The notes: a model not told the origin generated them from the letters alone. A DNA stretch of 27,699 nt from a virus (IMGVR_UViG_3300043442_001092:1-27699); one strand, 5' to 3'; shown: positions 1 to 23,499, numbered from the stretch's first letter. A program made the numbers and translations.

Positions 1-130
1 ATCCGAATCTACCCCCGAGTCCCTCGCGCCAGAGGGACCCGCCCGGCGTTGCAACTGAGAATCAGTCGCAACAGAGGCGCCCGGGGGTGGGCCAGGGCCA
101 GCCGGCCGGCCGTCAATCCTGCCCCGGTTC

Positions 131-208
131 GCATCACAAACAGCCCCGCAAACAACAGGAGCAAGGCATCACAAACAGCAGCGCAAACAGCCACGCAAAC
201 AAACAGCC
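131..208. repeat. Cluster of CAAACA(G)C repeats, including two copies of GCATCACAAACAGC
   Basis: GCATCACAAACAGC at 131-144 and 166-179; CAAACAAC 149-156; CAAACAGC 184-191; CAAACAAACAGCC 196-208. A-rich island within very GC-rich DNA. Confidence 0.9.
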
Positions 209-240
209 CCACCCGATCAAACGGGCAGGGCTCGCCACAT

Positions 241-271
241 AAAAAGGCCCCCGCCGGGTGAGGGCGGGGGC
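241..271 (-). terminator. Rho-independent terminator of the GC-rich minus-strand operon
   Basis: 9-bp stem GCCCCCGCC (247-255)/GGCGGGGGC (263-271) followed on the minus strand by a U-tract (AAAAA at 241-245 on +), about 25 nt after the stop at 296. Confidence 0.88.
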
Positions 272-295
272 TCGGATTGTCAGGGGCCCAGGCCG

Positions 296-1411
296 TCACC
301 ACCCGAGGGTGACCACCCCATCCGGGAGCTCCTGCGGCAGGCCGTGGGGCGTTAGGTGGAACGGTGCGGCCTCGGGCCCTGCCCCACGGCTGGCCTTGCT
401 CCTAAGGATCACAGCCACGCCCCCGGGCTCCCGGTAGCGGTGGTCTGAGAGGTCACCGTTAACGGTGGGGACCTGCAGGGTGCGGCCACCGGCCGTAAGG
501 GTGAGGGTGCGGGGCAGGGCCTGACCCCGGGCCAGGGCCACCGGTACGGCCAGGCGGAACCCGTCAGCGAGGGCGGCCAGGGCGTCAGCGGCGGCCGTGG
601 CCCTGTCAGCGGCCAGGCTGGCCGTAACGTCCCAGCCGGCGGCCCTTTGCGCCTGCAGGCCGAGGGGGCCGGTCAGGGGCGCCTTGCTGTAGTCGTAGAG
701 GGTGAGGCCCTCGGCGCGGGCGGGGGCCAGGGCCTCGGCCAGGGTCACAGCCTCACCCGGGGCCACGGGCAGGCCAAACCGGCGGCCGAGGGCCTGAGCC
801 TCGGCAGGGGTGACGGTCAGGGCCAGGCGATGCCACCCGATACGGGGGCCTTCATCGGTCCCGCGGAGCCTGACGGCCAGGCTCAGGGCCTCGGCCTGAG
901 CTCGGCGCCACTGCCACCCGATCGCCCATAGGACGGCCCGGCCGTACGTGACGGGGTCCGCCACCATTGCGAGGGTGCGGCGGCCCCGGGCCAGGGCCAC
1001 CCCTGTGCCGAGCCCGCCGCGGCCGCTGTAATTCAGGCAGCCGGCCTCACATGCTCGGGTGGCCCACGGGCAGCCCATATGGGCCAGGGCGGCGGCTGTG
1101 AGGCCCTCGGCCTCGGCCAGGGCGGCCAGGGCGGGCAGGTGGGCCCGGGCGGCCACAGGGTGGGCGGTGGTGGTGGTGACGGCGGCGGCCAGGGCCCGGG
1201 CGGGCAGGTGGTGGAGGATCACGGCGGCCCCGTGACCGAGGGCGGCCCCTTTGGACAGCTTCGGATTGGCCCCGGTCAGGAGCCCGGGCAGGGTGAGCCC
1301 AAACCGGGCCAGGAGCTCGGTCACGTCAGAGGGCAGGGCCAGGGGGGCTGTAGGGCGGGTGAGGATCACGGCAGGTAAGCGGCAAGGGTGGGCGGTGGCG
1401 GTGAGGGCCAC
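296..1411 (-). CDS. GP88-family (gene product 88, radical-SAM-like Cys motif) phage protein
   Basis: Ordered motifs match the family as I recall it: NPKLSKG, CPWATRACEAGCLNYSGRG (Cx6Cx3C), RRT, AVRLRGT, YDYSK, VNGDLSDHRY, GVAVILRSK. Confidence 0.78.
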   Translation of the reverse strand: MALTATAHPCRLPAVILTRPTAPLALPSDVTELLARFGLTLPGLLTGANPKLSKGAALGHGAAVILHHLPARALAAAVTTTTAHPVAARAHLPALAALAEAEGLTAAALAHMGCPWATRACEAGCLNYSGRGGLGTGVALARGRRTLAMVADPVTYGRAVLWAIGWQWRRAQAEALSLAVRLRGTDEGPRIGWHRLALTVTPAEAQALGRRFGLPVAPGEAVTLAEALAPARAEGLTLYDYSKAPLTGPLGLQAQRAAGWDVTASLAADRATAAADALAALADGFRLAVPVALARGQALPRTLTLTAGGRTLQVPTVNGDLSDHRYREPGGVAVILRSKASRGAGPEAAPFHLTPHGLPQELPDGVVTLGW

Positions 1412-1441
1412 AGGGGCCCCCGTGGGGGCCTGTGAGGCCGT

Positions 1442-1657
1442 CTAGTCGCGGTCACTGATCAGCCACCGGGTGGCCGGCGGTGGCGGTGGGGCCAGGCCGG
1501 CCCGTACGGCCTCACGGTGGGCGGCCTCGGCAGCCACCGCGGCGGCATGCCGGCGGATCAGCTCGGCAAGCCACGGGGCCCCCGGGGTGGCCAGGCCCAC
1601 GGGGTGGCCGGTGGCGCTCCTGACCGTGGCCAGGGGCGGGCGGGTGGGGCCTGTCAT
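1442..1657 (-). CDS. Hypothetical protein (71 aa, ends WLISDRD)
   Basis: ATG at 1657 is coupled to the upstream stop (TGATG); codon usage matches the neighbouring genes. Confidence 0.65.
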   Translation of the reverse strand: MTGPTRPPLATVRSATGHPVGLATPGAPWLAELIRRHAAAVAAEAAHREAVRAGLAPPPPPATRWLISDRD

Positions 1658-1893
1658 CACAGCCCCCACGCTTGATAAGCCACGGTAGGCAGGGCAGCCG
1701 CACCCCATAGGGGCTGTGAGTCTGCAGCCAGGCCCACCCGGCGGCCGTGCTGATCAGCGGCCCATGCGTGAGGCAGCCGGCAACCGGCGGGCGGCGGCCC
1801 GTAGGTTGCCTGCCGGCGGCGGCCGGCCAGGGTGAGCCAGGCCCGGTAGCGGCCCGGGCCCACCTGCCGGGTGCGGATCACGTACGGGGTCAC
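1657..1893 (-). CDS. Hypothetical protein (78 aa)
   Basis: GTG start overlaps the stop of 1890-2660 (GTGA); its stop overlaps the next start. Confidence 0.6.
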   Translation of the reverse strand: MTPYVIRTRQVGPGRYRAWLTLAGRRRQATYGPPPAGCRLPHAWAADQHGRRVGLAADSQPLWGAAALPTVAYQAWGL

Positions 1894-2660
1894 AGCAGCC
1901 CCCGGGCGGGATCGAGGGCGGCCACTACGGCCGGGCAGCCACCGAGGGCGGCCAGGGCCAGGGCCACCCCGGCGGGGTCAGGCTGGCCCGGGTGACGGGC
2001 AGCCACGGCGGCGGCCTCGGCTGTGAGCTGCCACCCGGCGGCCTGTGCGGCGGCCAGGGCCCCGGCGGGGCTGAAGGTATCGGGCAGGGTGAGCACCACC
2101 TGCCCGAGGGGGTCCAACAGGGCCACCGGGCCGGCCGAACGTATGGGGCCCATGATTCCCCACCCGGCCACCACCGGCCGCACAGGGGCGGCCCCCGTGG
2201 CCATCCGGGCCAGGGCGGCGGGCAGGGCCAGGGCCTCGGCATCGCCACCACCGGCCAGGGCGGCCAGGAGCTCACGGCAGGCGGTGACGGCCAGGGCGGC
2301 CCGGTCACCGTGGGCCAGGGCCAGGCCCTCGCCGGGGGTGAGGGCCGCCACGTACGCGTAGGACTCACCGCCATCCAATGAGCCAGGGGCGGGCAGTATC
2401 CGCCACGGCAGGCCCTCCCGGGCCAGCAGAGCGGCGGCGGCGGCATCCGGGCCCTCGGCGGCCGGTACGGCCAGGCGGGCGGCCCTCTCCCGGGGGCCAC
2501 GCTTAAGGGTGGCGACCCACTGCCCCCGGCCGTGGGAGTCGCATCCGTAGCGCACGACCACGGCGGGCCGGGAGCCCACCACGGGGGCGTGGGCGGCATC
2601 CGTGGCCACCCGGTCACGGCCGAGGGCGGCCAGGGCGGCGGGATCGTAGGGGTGAGGCAT
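1890..2660 (-). CDS. Hypothetical protein (256 aa, Ala-rich)
   Basis: Long ORF with ATG after a pyrimidine-rich leader; translationally coupled to the downstream ORFs. Confidence 0.75.
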   Translation of the reverse strand: MPHPYDPAALAALGRDRVATDAAHAPVVGSRPAVVVRYGCDSHGRGQWVATLKRGPRERAARLAVPAAEGPDAAAAALLAREGLPWRILPAPGSLDGGESYAYVAALTPGEGLALAHGDRAALAVTACRELLAALAGGGDAEALALPAALARMATGAAPVRPVVAGWGIMGPIRSAGPVALLDPLGQVVLTLPDTFSPAGALAAAQAAGWQLTAEAAAVAARHPGQPDPAGVALALAALGGCPAVVAALDPARGLL

Positions 2661-2725
2661 GGCAGCAAACGGTAAGGGGTGAGGGTGGCCCCGGCGGCCA
2701 GGGCGGCCGGGGCGGGGTGAGGGGC

Positions 2726-2938
2726 TCAGGCCAGGGCGGCCAGGAGCTCGGCGCGGCGGCCGTACGTGTAGAAGCGGCGGCTGAACCGGCGGGACTGAGC
2801 GGCCAGGCGGCGGAGCTCAGCCACGGTCAGGGCCTCGAGCTCAAGCGATGCGGCCGGCGGCAGGGCCAGGGGTGCCGGGGCGGTGGCGGCCCACAGGCGG
2901 GCGGCCAGGGCGTGGCAAAGGGCGATCAGGCGGAGCAT
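2726..2938 (-). CDS. Small protein with a Rho_N/SAP-like helix-extended-helix nucleic-acid-binding domain
   Basis: C-terminus LEALTVAELRRLA...GRRAELLAAL fits the Rho_N pattern LxxxTVxELRxLA...RKxELIxxL; ATG at 2938. Confidence 0.65.
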   Translation of the reverse strand: MLRLIALCHALAARLWAATAPAPLALPPAASLELEALTVAELRRLAAQSRRFSRRFYTYGRRAELLAALA

Positions 2939-2969
2939 GGCAAGCGTTAAGGGTGAGGGTGGGCAGGGC

Positions 2970-3143
2970 TCAGAACGACGGCCGGATGTTGTGGCATTGA
3001 TCCTGATCCCACCCGGCGGCCAGGCATTCGGCCACCCGGTGGGACTGATCAATCGCGCGGGCACCCTGAATGGCCAGCATTGTGCCGCCGGCAACAGCGA
3101 TCAGGGCCAGGCAGGCGGTGGTGAGGCTCAGCTCGCGGGGCAT
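2970..3143 (-). CDS. Small membrane/secreted protein (57 aa)
   Basis: MPRELSLTTACLALIAVAGGTMLAI hydrophobic N-terminus and a Cys pair in the C-terminal part; ATG at 3143. Confidence 0.65.
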   Translation of the reverse strand: MPRELSLTTACLALIAVAGGTMLAIQGARAIDQSHRVAECLAAGWDQDQCHNIRPSF

Positions 3144-3251
3144 GGCAGGCAAGGGTAAGGGGCAACGATGCGGCCGGGTGATCCGGCCTGCGGCCATCCT
3201 GAGACCGCCACCCCCGGGGATGCCTGAGCGGGGGTGACGGTTTTTCGGCCG

Positions 3252-4079
3252 TCACACTACGGCCCGAGCCCGGGCGGCCCGGCATGCGGCAAGGGCCCGC
3301 TCCTGAGCCACGGTCACCGGCGGCAAGGCGGCCAGGGCCACCGCGGCGGCCTGCAGACAATCCGAGGGCAGGTAATCCAGCGCCTGAGCCACCGGCCAGG
3401 CCCCGGCCATCACCGGGCCATCCGAGGCCCACGCACCGGGCAGGGTGAGGCCCGCACCCCGTACGGCCTGAGCGATGGGCCACAGGGTGGCCACCCGCTC
3501 ACCCTGCAGGGCCACCCGGGCCCGGGCCTCGGGGGTGCCGGGATCCCACGGCTGGCCGGCCAGGGTGTCACCCGCGGCAGGGCGGCGGCCACCCTGCGGC
3601 AGGCCGAGCTCACGGCCGAGGGTGCGGGCCAGGGCGGCCAGGCTCACAGGGCGGCCGGCGGCGGCATCACGGCGGAGCTCGGGCAGGGTGGGCTCAGGGG
3701 CGGGCCAGGCCGGGGGCTCGGGCGGCAGGGCCTCACCCGGGAGGGTGGGGCGGGTGCGGGTGAGCTCCTGAGCGGCCACAGGATCGGCCACAGGGGCAGG
3801 GGCAGGGGCCGGGGCAGGCTCGGCCACAGGCTCAGGAGCGGCCGGGGCCTCGGCCCACGGATCCTCCACCACGGGGGCCAGGCGGGCGGTCGAGCCCGGG
3901 CCCCACTTCGCTAGCTGTTTGGCGGCCAGATCCGGGCGGCCGGCCCACGACTGAGGCCATGCCTGGCCGAGGGCGGGGTCACCGGTCACCACCACCGCCA
4001 CATAGGTGCGGGCGGTGCGGCGGGTGATACGGGTGCCGGTGGCGGGATCGAGGGCGGTGATGGTGCGGGTTTGGGCCAC
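3252..4079 (-). CDS. Hypothetical early protein (275 aa, Pro/Ala-rich linker)
   Basis: GTG at 4079 follows a putative promoter; globular-looking N-terminus (TRRTARTYVAVVV...WAGRPDLAAK), then a PAPAPAP linker. Confidence 0.7.
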   Translation of the reverse strand: MAQTRTITALDPATGTRITRRTARTYVAVVVTGDPALGQAWPQSWAGRPDLAAKQLAKWGPGSTARLAPVVEDPWAEAPAAPEPVAEPAPAPAPAPVADPVAAQELTRTRPTLPGEALPPEPPAWPAPEPTLPELRRDAAAGRPVSLAALARTLGRELGLPQGGRRPAAGDTLAGQPWDPGTPEARARVALQGERVATLWPIAQAVRGAGLTLPGAWASDGPVMAGAWPVAQALDYLPSDCLQAAAVALAALPPVTVAQERALAACRAARARAVV

Positions 4080-4232
4080 AACAGATAAAGGCAACGGGTG
4101 CCCGCGAAGCATGCCGAGGCACCCCGCCGGATCCCGGGGCGCCTGTGCCACTTTTTCAGGCGGCCCCGTTGCCCTGGCCACGGCCACCCCGGGCAGGGTG
4201 CGGGGGCCACCCGGTCACCACCGGCGGCCCGT

Positions 4233-4255
4233 GGCTGTTTGCATCACAAACAGCC
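4233..4255. repeat. Palindrome GGCTGTTTG-CATCA-CAAACAGCC; 4241-4255 is identical to 131-145
   Basis: Perfect 9-bp inverted arms with a 5-nt spacer; exact 15-bp direct repeat GCATCACAAACAGCC. Confidence 0.9.
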
Positions 4256-4439
4256 GCACACAGTAAGGATAGAAAACACCTAGCACGGTTGCGCTAACGG
4301 TCGCCAGACCGTGGCCTCGCTGCGCATCAACAACTCCGCCGCACGGTTTTTCACACCGTCGGCCGCACCGGTTTGGGTAGCTAACTGCCCATCACACTAC
4401 CGGCATGTGCGCCCATAACGATACCGGCATGGCCGCAAT

Positions 4440-4490
4440 GGTACACCAGTGCTACCTAGTACACCTGTACTACTCTAGTACGTTTGTACG
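4440..4490. promoter_or_regulatory. Three tandem cyanobacterial LexA (SOS) box-like sites
   Basis: GGTACACCAGTGCT (4440-4453, one mismatch), AGTACACCTGTACT (4458-4471) and AGTACGTTTGTACG (4477-4490) versus the cyanobacterial LexA consensus RGTAC-NNND-GTWCB. Confidence 0.7.
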
Positions 4491-4561
4491 GGTGTGTGCG
4501 CCTATTCCTGGCGCGGTCCTTCACTATACCAGCAGCATGCGCTGCTGCCTTGTGCAGTGAT

Positions 4562-4658
4562 GGGGGGGAGGGGCTTTTAAACGGCTCAAGTTGTGTGTGT
4601 AAAAACAACACTAAAAACACCCTTTAAAAGCCGACCCCCCGCAGGTCCCTAAAAGCCG
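4562..4658. other. Candidate genome terminus/packaging site (inverted repeats with G- and C-tracts)
   Basis: GGCTTTTAAA (4572-4581) and TTTAAAAGCC (4623-4632) form an inverted pair flanked by G7 and C6 tracts around an A-rich core; TAAAAGCCG is repeated at 4625 and 4650. Confidence 0.4.
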
Positions 4659-4831
4659 GCAGGCCGCGAGTCCCCAAACGAAAACTCGAGGCAGGCTTCA
4701 ACCAGCTCGTCGTCGGTGGCAGCCATCAGGTCGTCGCGCAGCTCGAGCATTTGATCTTCGAAGATGTCGCCAGACTTCACCATCGCAGCCACCAGGCCGG
4801 CAACGACGTCAATGCGCTCGTCGTGTGTCAT
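4649..4831 (-). CDS. Hypothetical acidic protein (60 aa)
   Basis: ORF with ATG and typical codon usage, in an operon with the upstream ORF. Confidence 0.7.
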   Translation of the reverse strand: MTHDERIDVVAGLVAAMVKSGDIFEDQMLELRDDLMAATDDELVEACLEFSFGDSRPAGF

Positions 4832-4837
4832 GTCAGT

Positions 4838-5065
4838 TCAAGCAAAGGCGGGAGCTGCGTGATCATTGGCCTCGAGCTGCTCAGCCAGGCGCTCGGCACT
4901 GTCAAACACCGCAAGCCAAGCCGTGGTTGGTGGTTGGTAGCTGATGCTGTAGAGGTCGTTGCTCAAGCCATGAGCCTCGATGTGCCAGCCAGCGTCGTGC
5001 AGGGCACGGATCACCTGCTGGGCGTAGTCGCGGGTCTTGTTGAGGGTGAGCTCGCGGGTAATCAT
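4838..5065 (-). CDS. Hypothetical protein (75 aa)
   Basis: ATG at 5065 downstream of a promoter-like element at 5093-5136. Confidence 0.7.
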   Translation of the reverse strand: MITRELTLNKTRDYAQQVIRALHDAGWHIEAHGLSNDLYSISYQPPTTAWLAVFDSAERLAEQLEANDHAAPAFA

Positions 5066-5145
5066 GACGGGTAAGCGGTAAGCGCTGAGGGAACAGTAAG
5101 CGGCCACCAGTACCCCGGCAGCCGCATCGTTACAAACCGAAACGA

Positions 5146-5499
5146 TCAGCTTCCAGTGCTGAGGCTCACGTACACAGTCGGCCGATCGACGGCCACGCCC
5201 TTCTGCTGCTCCTCCTTCTGCAGCTGACGCACGCGCAGCTGGAACGCTTCCATGTAGGCGCTGTAGCTCCAGTTGTGACGCACCTTGCGGGTGGCTTTGA
5301 AGCCGCCCAGCTCGATCCGGTCCAGCTGCTGCTGGGTCATGTGATTCAGCAGGAACTCGCGGTGCCGGCTGAGCTCAGCCTCAAGCTTCTGGATCCGCAG
5401 CTGCAGCTCGTGAGCCTTGGCGAGGCGACGGCCGACGCGGCCGGCCGGGGAGTAGGCCCGCTCTTGGCGGGTGGTGGTGGTGGTGGTGGTAACGGTCAT
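5146..5499 (-). CDS. Coiled-coil hypothetical protein (loosely Gp157/Gam-like)
   Basis: ELQLRIQKLEAELSRHREFLLNHM...IELGGFKATRK; ATG at 5499 followed by poly-Thr. The family resemblance is weak. Confidence 0.7.
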   Translation of the reverse strand: MTVTTTTTTTRQERAYSPAGRVGRRLAKAHELQLRIQKLEAELSRHREFLLNHMTQQQLDRIELGGFKATRKVRHNWSYSAYMEAFQLRVRQLQKEEQQKGVAVDRPTVYVSLSTGS

Positions 5500-5577: not shown

Positions 5578-6348
5578 TTACCTACCCATCACCTCACGCA
5601 GCTTCTTCTCAACCAGCTCCGGGAAATACTGATACGCCAAGTTCTCAGTGATGCCATAAAAGTCATACTTCGGCTGCACTGTCGGCGGCTTCGGCAGTGT
5701 CTTGAACACCATCCCCAAGTCGCCACCTTTCCGCCGGTAGATGCCCGGCTTCAGTCCCTGGCCACCTCGACGTGGATCAGGCGAAATGAAAAACGAATCA
5801 CCGCCGCGGCGCTTCTTGGCGTACCCCGACAACGGAGACTCCATGGCACCAATTGCAAACAGGATCTTGGTGTATTGGCCAGGGCGAATGTTGCCGTACT
5901 CGTTGAGCAGATCAGCTACGTTGCCGTTTCGCTTCAGCGGCGTCAGATACTGGTTGCCATAAATCAACCCCATCCGCTGCACGCGTTTGGTGAAGCGGGT
6001 GACGTAAACCTCTTTCGCTCCACCGCTATCTCGTACTTGCGGAAACAGGTAGTAGCTCGGCGGCTGACCCTTGGCGCCATCCTCCGAAATCCAGAACCCC
6101 ATCTCGAGGTTGGACTTATCGCTCCGCACCCACGGCTTGTAACCCTTGGCACCCCACCTCACGCTGTTGAGCGTGAACGGCACCGGGTTGTTGAATGTCT
6201 GCCCCATGCGCTGCTTGTGGGCATCGCGGATCTGCGGCGCCATCGTGTTGAGCGCCCAGCTCATCACGAACGGCATCTGCACGCGCTCGAGGTAGGTCAA
6301 GTTCTTGACCAGAGCTTCGGCGTCGAAGGTGATGGTGCGGCCGGCCAT
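5578..6348 (-). CDS. Conserved basic phage protein of the type usually encoded just before the packaging site/terminase genes
   Basis: QMPFVMSWALN...FNNPVPFTLNSV...YLFPQV..GG...LNEYGNI...GIYRR...PKYDFY pattern recognised from memory; function unverified. Confidence 0.6.
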   Translation of the reverse strand: MAGRTITFDAEALVKNLTYLERVQMPFVMSWALNTMAPQIRDAHKQRMGQTFNNPVPFTLNSVRWGAKGYKPWVRSDKSNLEMGFWISEDGAKGQPPSYYLFPQVRDSGGAKEVYVTRFTKRVQRMGLIYGNQYLTPLKRNGNVADLLNEYGNIRPGQYTKILFAIGAMESPLSGYAKKRRGGDSFFISPDPRRGGQGLKPGIYRRKGGDLGMVFKTLPKPPTVQPKYDFYGITENLAYQYFPELVEKKLREVMGR

Positions 6349-6893: not shown

Positions 6894-9476
6894 AGTCTCA
6901 AGCGTCTCAAGTGGGACCAACGTTGCGCGTGCAACGCCGCTTCCTTTGAATCGGACGGTCCCGGCACTGGTCGAGGCACCAGATAGCCGCCTCAGGGCTT
7001 GCCGGTAGGCGTTGCCGGCCCACGGGGTGTCTTTCAGCAGGGCCTGCAGGTTGGTGCTGTTGTTGGCCACGGCGAGCGTGCCACCGGTCACCTTCAGGCC
7101 GTAGCGACCGAGGATCGTCTCGATCTCATCGGAGGGGTGGTCACGGCCCGGGATGGCGAAGATCACGCCGCGCTGGGCCATCTGGACGAGCTCCAGCACC
7201 GACATCCGCTTGCCGCCATCCACCTGGATCAGGGCCTGGAGGATGTGGTTGATGCACTTGACCTCGTCCGCATCGGTGGCGTCCACCTCGCGGCTCTCCC
7301 AGTCCATCATGTTGATCCACTCCATGGCCTGATAGAGCGTCAGCTCGCCACCACCGCCGGGCTCGAGCGTCCAGGCGCCAGCGAGCAGGGTTCCGTACTG
7401 ATCGCCGAAGCGCTGCCCGAAGCGGCGTGAGAGGGCAGCTGCGAGGGTCTTGGCGTTCCTGCGGATGGTCGGGATCTGCTGAAGGGTGCGAGCCACCAGA
7501 CGACGCCCGTTCTCCTCAGTGCAGGTGTTCAGGATCTGCTGCTCGAATTCATTCCAGTCGTCCTTGTCCATGTGGTCTTTGCGGAGGCTCAGGACGCAGA
7601 AGCGATCGAGATCAGCGCGTTGAATCAGTGCGACGTTGATAGAGCTACAGCAGAACATTGAGCGTATCTCAAATGAGTTTGAGCCGCCGGATGTTGTGCC
7701 TTTGTAAATCTTTCCGCCCTCGGAAGATGCGATGCGTGCTAAGGCGAGAATGTTCTGGACGGTCTGCTTGTCCTTCTGCTCATTCTGCTCGAGTTCGTCG
7801 AACACGACCGGGATAGCATCGGAGCGCAACTGACCCCGCAATCCGGCCTCGGTTGTGCCACCAGTCGCGCCCTCAAACATGCCACCAAGCAGTGGCTTCA
7901 TGAAAGCTTTGAGGATGGTCGTCTTGCCCGTGCCAGCACCACCGGTGACCCAGATGTGTGGCCGCCAGTCGAGTGCGCCACAGACGGGCGCGAGAACGAT
8001 CCAGCCGAGGAGCAAGTTGGCGGAAGCGGGTGTCTCCCAACGAAAACGTTCGGCGATGATGCGCACCTCGGCGCAGAGGTCATCAGAGAGGACGTCACTG
8101 CCGGGGCCGTCGATGGCTTTGGCGTTTTCGTAGAAGTAGAAGGTCTTGAACTTGAGCGGCAGCTTGGTGATGGGGTGTGAGTAGCCGTCGATCACGAGGC
8201 GGTTGCCGAGGTGAAGGATCACCCGGGAGGAATCAGCCCAGGCACCGCGACCACGAATGCGGGACGGGTCGTAGACGCCCTGCGAGATACAGGAACCCAT
8301 GATGGCGTTGGCGGCTGAATCCCAGTCGATGCGGCCGTTGTCGTTGCCGAAGCCGTTTGCCCACCACTCGAGGGGGGCGAGCTGCAGAAAGTGAGACTTA
8401 TTGTGCTGAGCGGCGGTGAGGGCAACGACCTGGCAGGCCGCTGCTGGCAGGTAGTAGTAGATGCCGTGATCAAAGCCGAGGGGGCGGAAGGGGAGGTTGT
8501 CGGCAGGCTCAGGCTGCGGATCGATGGGAGCTGCCTGCTGGATTGAGGGGAGCTGCCGCAGCTCAGGCGGGCCGGGCCGCACGCGCACCGGCGCCCGGTA
8601 ACCGTGCTCCTTGGCCCAGTACCAGAAGGTGCCAGCACCGACGTCGTTGCCACCGGATCGAGCGACCTGATCGATGCCATGCCACTGTGGTGAGTGGGCA
8701 GCCATCATCGAGATGGCAGTGGCCTCGGAGTTGCCGGCCTCCTCGACGGCGGCGATCAGACCCCAGAGGATGTTGCGGTACATCGGGTAGGTGCCACCAC
8801 CAGGCACCCGGGGCGGGATGTGGTTGAGAGCCTTCTGGATCTCGTCGAGCCCCTGGGCCTCGTAGTCGTTGAAGGTGCGGGCCTGCTCGATACGCTGATC
8901 GACCACCGGCGCCGGCATGGTCGCGGCGAACTCGGTGAGTGAGTAGCGGGCATCAGAGAGGTGGATCAGCCTGGCCTGCTCACCGGTTTCAGGGTGCGGG
9001 GTGCCGGGCAGTCGCATGACCCTCGAGGGGTTCTTGAGCTGGCGGTCGGCGTTGGCGTGGTCGAGCAAGCGGGTCTGGACGGGTTTCCAGAGCTCGGGGC
9101 TGACCGAGCCGGAGAGGATCCAGTAGTTGTGGATCGACTTGCCACCGGTGTCGACCTGCATCGAGGGCTCCGGGAGGCCGAGCTCCTTCCATGCGGTGAT
9201 CTGCCAGTCTTTGGGGCGATCGTCCCACTCGCAGAAGAGGGCGATGCACTCGGTGATGTCGGCGTCCTTGTCCCCGCCGTTGTTGATGACGACGTAGACG
9301 CCGCGGCCATCGGCCACCCAGGATTCGATCAGCGATTTACTGGGATCACCCTTGGCACCGTGGTCGTTTGCTTTGCGCGGATCGGTCTTGGCGTAGAAGC
9401 CGCGGAGGCGGATGGTGCCTTTGGGTTTGCCGAGGGCGGCCAGGAACTGGCGTACTGCATCAATGTCAACGGGCAT
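6888..9476 (-). CDS. Primase-helicase (RepB-type primase + PriCT-2 + P-loop helicase)
   Basis: VYVVIN, LFCEWDD, TGGKSIHNYW and RVMRLPGTPH (RepB primase); GAGTFWYWAKEHGY (PriCT-2); Walker A GGAGTGKT and Walker B VVFDE. ATG at 9476 preferred. Confidence 0.9.
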   Translation of the reverse strand: MPVDIDAVRQFLAALGKPKGTIRLRGFYAKTDPRKANDHGAKGDPSKSLIESWVADGRGVYVVINNGGDKDADITECIALFCEWDDRPKDWQITAWKELGLPEPSMQVDTGGKSIHNYWILSGSVSPELWKPVQTRLLDHANADRQLKNPSRVMRLPGTPHPETGEQARLIHLSDARYSLTEFAATMPAPVVDQRIEQARTFNDYEAQGLDEIQKALNHIPPRVPGGGTYPMYRNILWGLIAAVEEAGNSEATAISMMAAHSPQWHGIDQVARSGGNDVGAGTFWYWAKEHGYRAPVRVRPGPPELRQLPSIQQAAPIDPQPEPADNLPFRPLGFDHGIYYYLPAAACQVVALTAAQHNKSHFLQLAPLEWWANGFGNDNGRIDWDSAANAIMGSCISQGVYDPSRIRGRGAWADSSRVILHLGNRLVIDGYSHPITKLPLKFKTFYFYENAKAIDGPGSDVLSDDLCAEVRIIAERFRWETPASANLLLGWIVLAPVCGALDWRPHIWVTGGAGTGKTTILKAFMKPLLGGMFEGATGGTTEAGLRGQLRSDAIPVVFDELEQNEQKDKQTVQNILALARIASSEGGKIYKGTTSGGSNSFEIRSMFCCSSINVALIQRADLDRFCVLSLRKDHMDKDDWNEFEQQILNTCTEENGRRLVARTLQQIPTIRRNAKTLAAALSRRFGQRFGDQYGTLLAGAWTLEPGGGGELTLYQAMEWINMMDWESREVDATDADEVKCINHILQALIQVDGGKRMSVLELVQMAQRGVIFAIPGRDHPSDEIETILGRYGLKVTGGTLAVANNSTNLQALLKDTPWAGNAYRQALRRLSGASTSAGTVRFKGSGVARATLVPLETLETL

Positions 9477-23152: not shown

Positions 23153-23499
23153 GACTTCTCCATTCTTGCTTCAGACGAAGAGTTGAAGCGGCTCATAGCC
23201 GCACTGGACACGTTCCCCACCACGCCACTGCAGTGGCGCTTCGCTCAGCTGGTGAAGCTGTTGCCGTTGGCTGGGTGCCGCCTGAATGAGATCTGCTCTG
23301 GCAGATGGGAATGGCTCAACGAGAAGGCAGTTGTTCTGGTGATTCCGAGAGAGTGTCACAAGACCGGCAAGAAGACCGGCAAGGATCGGGTCGTGCATCT
23401 TCCTCCTGCAGCGATTTGCATCCTGAGAGAGTTGAGACTCAAAACGAACTCAGAATGAATTATCGCAGGTCGGGCAGATGAGCGCTTGATCAGCGCCGA
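23153..23499 (+). pseudogene. Truncated tyrosine integrase remnant
   Basis: SDEELKRL...LAGCRLNEI (catalytic Arg)...HKTG (catalytic Lys)...RVVHL...NSE*IIAG. In-frame stop at 23150, TGA at 23456 where a Trp is expected, and no HxxR/Tyr region. Confidence 0.85.

Follow-up and report, generated by a model that had tools for sequence, protein, structure and literature searches.

Described leading regions and the terminal block

The leading regions of bacteriophages T5 and BF23, and those of T7 and T3, are the closest described counterparts of the DNA considered here, a GC-rich block of seven genes at one end of the virus contig IMGVR_UViG_3300043442_001092:1-27699 (hereafter the window, which is the whole 27.7-kilobase (kb) contig). 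In T5 and BF23, restriction works only if sites lie in the first-step-transfer region, a terminal stretch whose pre-early genes are partly transcribed toward the end and whose border is non-coding and rich in repeats (PMC10644984, in excerpt). In T7 and T3, a first-entering anti-Type I gene of the leading region, for Ocr or the SAMase respectively, protects an unpurged genome (excerpts of PMC3874165 and 10.1101/2023.02.27.530186), and Type I restriction needs S-adenosylmethionine (SAM; PMC3874165). Across whole genomes, phages were found to avoid orthodox Type II palindromes, with no avoidance seen for Type I or Type IIG sites (PMC6286503). A literature search missing most subscription papers found none on this block, on the function of the GP88 family that it encodes, or on the spacing avoidance described below.

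A first-pass annotation of the window had proposed that positions 131-4260 are written in a distinct sequence vocabulary, purged of restriction motifs, and enter the cell first. We found that the clearest cause of the odd vocabulary is geometric, namely a deficit of A..T pairs at the spacing of Type I recognition sites. We think it probable that the block is the right cohesive end of a phage likely to infect picocyanobacteria, that its depletion of the Type I frame most likely reflects first entry as unmethylated DNA, and that it cannot afford a cut before its seven-gene operon has produced a predicted inhibitor of SAM-dependent restriction.

The block is like the T5 and BF23 region in its terminal position, in genes directed toward the end, and in its non-coding, repeat-rich border. 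Unlike T5, it ends in a 13-nucleotide (nt) cohesive-end site (cos) and not a 10-kb terminal repeat, none of its seven proteins has a Pfam or PHROG match to A1 or A2, and its purge is two to four times deeper at distances of 7-8 nt and is joined to a 15-point rise in GC. T5 first-step DNA (L198:1-9100) carries the same signal faintly (A..T ratios of 0.84 and 0.85 at distances of 8 and 9 nt), and it is absent further in. For the window's phage, staged injection of the T5 kind would be a conjecture. The presumed delivery of an anti-Type I function ahead of an unpurged genome recalls T7 and T3, yet no Ocr or SAMase homologue was found in the block and its genes face the end. The first 1.3 kb of T7 has no clear A..T dip, and S-LBS1 and the ends of lambda have little or none. 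The window's genes outside the block avoid palindromes, as phages do for orthodox Type II sites in PMC6286503; unlike that genome-wide result, Type I geometry is here avoided strongly, and only in the terminal 2-5 kb. By analogy, the block would work like the T5 first-step region and gene 0.3 of T7 and T3, yet it belongs to neither.

Type I geometry, genome end and relatives

In the left half-site Type I enzymes methylate an A, and in the right one the A that pairs with a T, the two lying 6-9 bp apart (PMC3874165 Table 1), so that a site places A and T on one strand at a distance of 7-10 nt (d7 to d10). Across 131-4260, A..T at d7, d8, d9 and d10 occurs 14, 28, 27 and 38 times against about 60 expected each; control spacings are normal (65-81 at distances 4-6 and 11-12), and the mirror T..A counts at d7-10 are 47, 71, 77 and 47. 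The A..T total of 107 at 7-10 nt compares with 239±13, 235±14 and 223±12 in shuffles preserving 3-, 5- and 6-lets, indicating that the deficit is not a by-product of the vocabulary. A GP88 alignment fetched 160 loci; once the window was added, 159 genes were usable, and these fell into 62 clusters (lineages). Under synonymous shuffling, A..T at d7-10 has observed/expected ratios of 0.42, 0.62, 0.84 and 0.73 in the window's block genes, and of 0.63, 0.69, 0.83 and 0.85 in 62 GP88 genes (z -19 to -10, inflated like all pooled z and p values here since the lineages share ancestry, of which the single-genome shuffle test is independent). The T..A ratios were near unity (1.01, 1.01, 1.02 and 0.94), and control genes from 39 of the same clusters gave A..T ratios of 0.99, 0.97, 0.99 and 1.00.

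Only 4.7% of the generic Type I motif space has a site in the first 4260 nt, against 21-25% in nine windows of equal size, and 0.6% has two sites, against 5-6% elsewhere. GC alone would leave 10% with a site; high GC and spacing together reduce generic Type I sites about fivefold, and in this window alone 65% of generic motifs have a site in the remainder. We conclude that selection acts on Type I site geometry and not on one specificity, which suits a host population with varying specificities; avoidance that is strong, local and independent of specificity explains how a phage can face hosts whose Type I specificities shift. The opponent indicated is Type I restriction (bipartite, with N6-methyladenine, m6A), and probably other asymmetric m6A systems as well. 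The proposed purge of restriction motifs stands for Type I geometry. It falls for palindromic sites of the classical kind, these being avoided elsewhere in the genome but not in the block.

The vocabulary on which that proposal was built is real. Our recount reproduced its hand counts exactly, both in 301-900 (31 GGCC, 10 CCGG, 3 GCGC, 2 CGCG, 0 TCGA) and in 7201-7800 (2 GGCC, 3 GCGC, 4 TCGA), and 131-4260 as a whole holds 192 GGCC, 92 CCGG, 11 GCGC, 13 CGCG, 4 GTCG, 4 CGAC, 3 GAAG and 3 CTTC. The block is indeed high in GC, at 75.6% (68-80% in 500-nt windows), slightly below the 78-85% claimed, against 61.0% outside it (4651-27699); the A/T content of its genes is about half that of other genes, and its boundary is placed at 4235 when judged by GC and at 4258 when judged by A..T spacing. 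The word skew persists after correction for GC, codon and amino-acid content, by synonymous and by k-let-preserving shuffles. Against 300 synonymous-codon shuffles, with amino-acid sequence and codon usage held fixed, the block is depleted in CCCAG (1 vs 24.7), CTCGC (4 vs 24.4), GGCGA (6 vs 25.3) and CCGAC (0 vs 10.7), and its genes contain 789 distinct 6-mers vs 924±13, a lower word diversity. A word and its reverse complement are depleted together on the coding strand (Spearman 0.51), so that the depletion is strand-symmetric and its cause acts on double-stranded DNA.

The restricted contiguous vocabulary is likely to reflect an added avoidance of asymmetric motifs methylated to m6A on a single strand (Type IIG, Type III and bacteriophage exclusion (BREX) systems), which is the weaker part of the argument. 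Expected-but-absent 6-mers amount to about eightfold the null in the block, 2.2-fold in GP88 genes and 1.1-fold in controls; a preference of these words for A at positions 4-5 is present in 45 of 62 lineages (p 2e-5), against 24 of 39 controls. A comparison of REBASE asymmetric sites with the depleted words was suggestive against anagram controls.

The block lies at the physical end of the genome. Two complete relatives (G001 and G002) begin and end with one and the same 13-nt sequence, the pattern that a filled-in cohesive end would give, and positions 1-13 of the window are equivalent; a third relative (L009) has the same 13-mer and runs on into terS. Among 38 loci with GGGTCC, which we take to resemble lambda cosQ, followed by the cos motif, 28 (15 lineages, including the window) stop 39-40 nt from its first base, one stops at 58 and nine run on, those examined continuing into terS, terL and portal. 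A cos-pattern scan of viral contigs gave no match because its pattern was too strict. The terS gene of relatives begins either just past cos or 150-330 nt from the left end; terS and terL lie outside the window, and the terminase is of the lambda gpA type, with S-LBS1 as best match. Contig depth is not doubled over the block and each complete record has one GP88 copy, which together with the 13-nt overlap indicates that there is no long terminal repeat. This sequence evidence identifies positions 1-4258 as the right cohesive end of a cos phage of the lambda type, whose overhang is presumably 5'.

The phage is likely to infect picocyanobacteria. All 105 records matched by its endolysin are cyanophages, and a Cyanobacteriota genome bin (G011, L161), which may not be an independent sample, is identical to the contig over 11,372 bases and terminates at the same base. 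In the family of that bin, hsdR exceeds the cut-off in 36 of 151 genomes and MmeI_Mtase in 58 of 151; neither hsdR nor MmeI-type methylase domains were found in the bin itself, which is incomplete. Methylome motifs of picocyanobacteria were not found in the literature, including the supplements of PMC4752239; those of 10.1101/2021.11.30.470565 may hold some.

Thirty-six clusters had enough flank for comparison. Their GC-rich block, mostly of 2-4 kb, ends at or shortly after GP88 and is preceded by an AT-rich hinge, the GC step being weak in two. The A..T ratio is below 0.85 in all 62 GP88 genes and in 32 of 34 stretches of other block DNA, and in none of 36 upstream flanks. All ten long records (nine rated at least 98% complete) have a single A..T dip, located at the block. 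The blocks of L067 and L061 have a very different, CTCT/GAGAG-rich vocabulary and the same A..T purge, indicating that vocabularies are lineage-specific.

Since this first set had been picked by GP88, we fetched 26 further loci by a gpZ-like gene; twelve lacked GP88 and covered the whole stretch to cos or terminase, and the rest were excluded (eight with GP88, four truncated, one near-duplicate, one without a recognisable end). Eleven of the twelve GP88-negative terminal segments are below 0.85, with pooled A..T ratios at d7-10 of 0.63, 0.73, 0.73 and 0.84. Relatives from both sets thus carry a similarly biased block at the same place with other genes. We additionally identified the same kind of block in a second group, phages of 68-75 kb with another terminase and a ribonucleotide reductase. 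The package as a whole is conserved over two phage groups while its genes turn over. The A..T/T..A statistic is simple, and indicates which end matters and which genes to test.

Proposed mechanism and alternatives

The gene next to cos in the window encodes a member of the GP88 family (PF17338; L5 gene 88; phrog_1617). All 88 aligned relatives match PF17338, and the cysteines C100, C107 and C111 (CX6CX3C) are invariant in these sequences at a mean column identity of 23%; the window protein differs from the family in its 357 residues with insertions. Its structural model (predicted local distance difference test, 88.7) has a predicted partial triosephosphate isomerase (TIM) barrel with a weak likeness to radical SAM enzymes. 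The three cysteines follow the first strand (49-53), and the RGTDEGP stretch after the second strand presumably resembles the GGE motif. The top seven neighbours of the model among 48,161 chains (VIA) are radical SAM proteins (Z 5.4-6.1, root-mean-square deviation (rmsd) 4.4-5.3, 174-199 aligned), with glycoside hydrolase barrels next at 5.3. No sequence link to radical SAM proteins was found in PDB, nor in Pfam for the 88 members, and the canonical CxxxCxxC is absent. A search of the same cultured phages as in the DNA search below gave one weak match to the GP88 protein; cultured phages carry GP88 2 kb from the right end in L5 and 4-5 kb from an end in Streptomyces phages.

In the twelve GP88-negative blocks, the slot before cos is taken by DUF7227 (PF23872) in eight, by a weak DUF7227/phrog_2554 match in one, and by acidic proteins (about 18% D+E) in three (L225:11504-11974, L226:11547-12011, L227:11610-12254). 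DUF7227 has CX3CX6C (L223, L215), and its profile weakly cross-matches that of GP88 (probability 9%, E 0.004, motifs in register). When the L225/L226 acidic protein was compared with T7 Ocr, Ocr ranked first of 217 at E 0.067, and the hhalign score of 11.9 equalled that of shuffled Ocr (mean 12.2). Our leading guess, a tentative one, is that GP88 is an iron-sulphur (Fe-S) enzyme with a radical-SAM-like fold that would destroy or sequester SAM; this would liken it to the T3 SAMase, with SAM removal in both and different chemistry. Two families without assigned function, DUF7227 and GP88, the latter found in hundreds of cultured actinophages, would thereby gain a concrete and testable role.

In the standard model, the end of a phage genome packaged last enters first. 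The right end would thus arrive first, as unmethylated DNA with few Type I sites. Host RNA polymerase would fire a promoter in the hinge, giving a transient burst from the naked incoming DNA, and host LexA would then bind the hinge boxes and damp that promoter. The last-slot product (GP88 here; DUF7227 or acidic proteins in relatives) would blunt Type I and other SAM-dependent systems, after which the unpurged remainder of the genome would survive. Type I cleavage needs two sites (PMC10644984, in excerpt).

Several results weigh against this reading. Asymmetric words listed in REBASE show no significantly stronger depletion than unlisted ones of identical form (p 0.42 and 0.11; one of six difference tests at p 0.01). 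Among the GP88-negative terminal segments, L216 lacks the purge (0.96), and no four-distance purge surrounds the GP88 genes of L5, Mildred21 and S-EIVl, that of S-EIVl being internal, among replication genes. The radical SAM likeness of GP88 is within tool noise (Z below 8, rmsd 4.4-5.3), and a Foldseek search of PDB with its model had no match at E 0.001. Searches of Pfam, PHROG, PADLOC and PDB placed none of the block proteins in a known anti-restriction family, and the seven have net charges of -1 to +9, none being acidic like Ocr. The hinge itself is not purged, and the genes point toward the end, so that the promoter would enter 4.5 kb late. In the second phage group, the block was not seen at a fixed contig end. 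Finally, lambda is reported to eject either end about half the time in vitro (PMC10287942, in excerpt).

The gene direction, the second phage group and the lambda result would also suit an alternative in which Type I avoidance is real and unrelated to entry order: the whole genome would enter fast, and the block, as the first transcribed operon with its promoter region in the interior, would be kept intact while cuts elsewhere are prevented or are repaired by a phage recombinase, the window having RecE-like, RecT-like and SSB genes. We consider this unlikely, since in the cos group the purge runs from hinge to cos with contigs ending there, the left end of five relatives (G001-G005) has no A..T dip, and GP88 lies close to a genome end in L5 and the Streptomyces phages too.

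We give little credence to a second alternative, in which ordinary palindromic Type II sites have been removed from the block and all that it retains are safe words, GGCC among them, that the host methylates. Its genes are poor in GCGC (9 vs 35.6 in synonymous shuffles) and CGCG (12 vs 31.9) and rich in GGCC (173 vs 131), GGCC (1.17) and GATC (1.30) are enriched in the 62 GP88 genes, and methyltransferases for both words are widespread in cyanobacteria (PMC6105098, in excerpt); by analogy both may be host-methylated, and a role for GGCC as a safe word is plausible. As a main cause, however, this is contradicted: palindromes as a class are depleted in control genes, where their mean log2 is -0.53 vs -0.16 for anagrams, but not in GP88 genes, where it is +0.01 vs -0.14, GCGC and CGCG stand at 0.97 across lineages, and the block has 6 CGTACG, 11 GGGCCC and 18 CCCGGG vs 0, 1 and 4 in the window's other genes. 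Words alike on both strands would be cheap where asymmetric motifs must be avoided on both.

Mutational or physical causes, such as GC-biased conversion at a recombination-prone end, escape from AT-binding silencers, RNA structure or avoidance of ultraviolet dimers, seem to us just as improbable. The low word diversity of the block, a GC rise shared by the three codon positions, and the tandem repeats that many relatives have behind the terminator would fit them, and they could still add to the GC rise. None predicts a loss of A..T without a loss of T..A at 7-10 nt, however, and DNA adjoining cos is AT-rich in many relatives. The strand-symmetric depletion speaks against an RNA-level cause, and dimer avoidance found no support in strand-specific dinucleotides, where others are depleted more than template-strand dipyrimidines.

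A chimeric assembly or a recent transfer out of a high-GC donor, which the sharp compositional boundary and the lack of any DNA match to the block among cultured phages of the phage collection might suggest, is refuted by a second-sample contig spanning 3466-5523 with 0 differences, by blocks that exceed their flank in GC across genomes of about 49-65% GC and use lineage-specific vocabularies, and by relatives that are all phage-like.

It is possible, though doubtful, that the preferred reading extends further, and that two groups of uncultured cyanophages share a first-entry module that is recoded against universal Type I geometry, timed by LexA, possibly paused at the hinge repeats, and delivers GP88 or DUF7227 as a new Fe-S, radical-SAM-like class removing SAM against Type I, Type IIG and BREX systems. 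If so, the ratio of A..T to T..A spacing would suffice to locate, in the sequence of any phage or plasmid, its leading region and its anti-restriction genes.

Features and surroundings of the block

Table 1. Coordinates of features at the block end of the window, with the evidence for each (aa, amino acids; ORF, open reading frame).
Feature	Position	Strand	Evidence
Cohesive-end sequence (cosN-like, 13 nt), physical right end	1..13	-	Matches 13-nt sequence at both ends of G001 and G002
cosQ-like GGGTCC	35..40	-	28/38 motif loci end 39-40 nt from its first base
GC-rich zone depleted in A-N6..9-T frames (Type I site geometry)	1..4258	.	A..T spacing counts, boundary 4258
Intrinsic-terminator-like hairpin closing the operon	247..271	-	9 G-C pairs and T tract; similar hairpins after GP88 in relatives
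GP88-family protein, 357 aa	296..1369	-	PF17338 E 1e-5, 26 bits vs cut-off 24.4
71-aa ORF	1442..1657	-	phrog_14769 E 6e-5; matches in 2/61 other lineages
78-aa ORF, no family	1657..1893	-	Open frame; matches in 6/61 other lineages
256-aa ORF, no family	1890..2660	-	Open frame; matches in 14/61 other lineages
70-aa ORF, no family	2726..2938	-	Open frame; match in 1/61 other lineages
57-aa ORF, hydrophobic N-terminal stretch, no family	2970..3143	-	Open frame; 0/61 other lineages (filtered tblastn)
275-aa Pro/Ala-rich ORF, first block gene	3252..4079	-	Open frame; matches in 12/61 other lineages
Cyanobacterial LexA-box matches	4440..4490	.	4458-4471 and 4477-4490 exact, 4440-4453 one mismatch
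Candidate extended -10 element TGGTATAGT	4523..4531	-	Read by eye, missed by promoter scan; weak
Two tandem 21-nt repeats GGAC(YY)GC-N7-CGGYTT, outer hinge edge	4628..4673	-	Only two strict matches in window
Three small ORFs (60, 75, 117 aa), normal GC, mild A..T deficit	4649..5499	-	A..T d7, d8 = 19, 16 vs 31 expected; no family
gpZ-like gene marking approach to right end	5578..6348	-	phrog_1924 E 1e-34; at record end in F10, MD8

The seven minus-strand frames of the block were found free of internal stops and closed by a single terminator-like hairpin, in agreement with the earlier description. Besides GP88, the block genes of the window recur in 0-14 of the 61 other lineages. In one relative (L016), the N-terminus of the first block protein is fused to GP88, and in another (G006, L179:10973-12637) GP88 is fused behind a homologue of that N-terminus. 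Contigs of a relative in RNA run X9 cover the block, which is not evidence of transcription.

In the hinge, we identified LexA boxes by the pattern RGTACNNNDGTWCB (PMC3091678, in excerpt), which is matched 53 times within 39.6 kb of hinge DNA and 12 times within 484 kb outside it. They occur in the hinge of 21 of 36 lineages, in both phage groups, and also in many of the gpZ-picked loci. The 21-nt repeats are specific to the hinge, and 15 of 36 lineages have them close to where the block starts. They resemble DNA just left of cosN and could be protein or terminase half-sites. Beyond them, the 60-aa ORF (4649-4831) is acidic (25% D+E, net -11), making it a candidate DNA mimic; an atlas search with it gave no usable match.

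The direct repeat GCATCACAAACAGC stands at both block borders (131-144, 166-179 and 4241-4254), and 4233-4255, which includes the last copy, belongs to an inverted repeat. Tandem repeat arrays lie between terminator and cos after the GP88 stop in four relatives (L086, L111, L116, L081). The rest of the window encodes a primase, a helicase, VRR-NUC, RecE-like and RecT-like proteins, SSB, ThyX, a dCTP deaminase and lysis genes, and a short integrase remnant at 23183-23458 (Pfam E 1.6e-5, under the cut-off) adjoins an AT-rich stretch.

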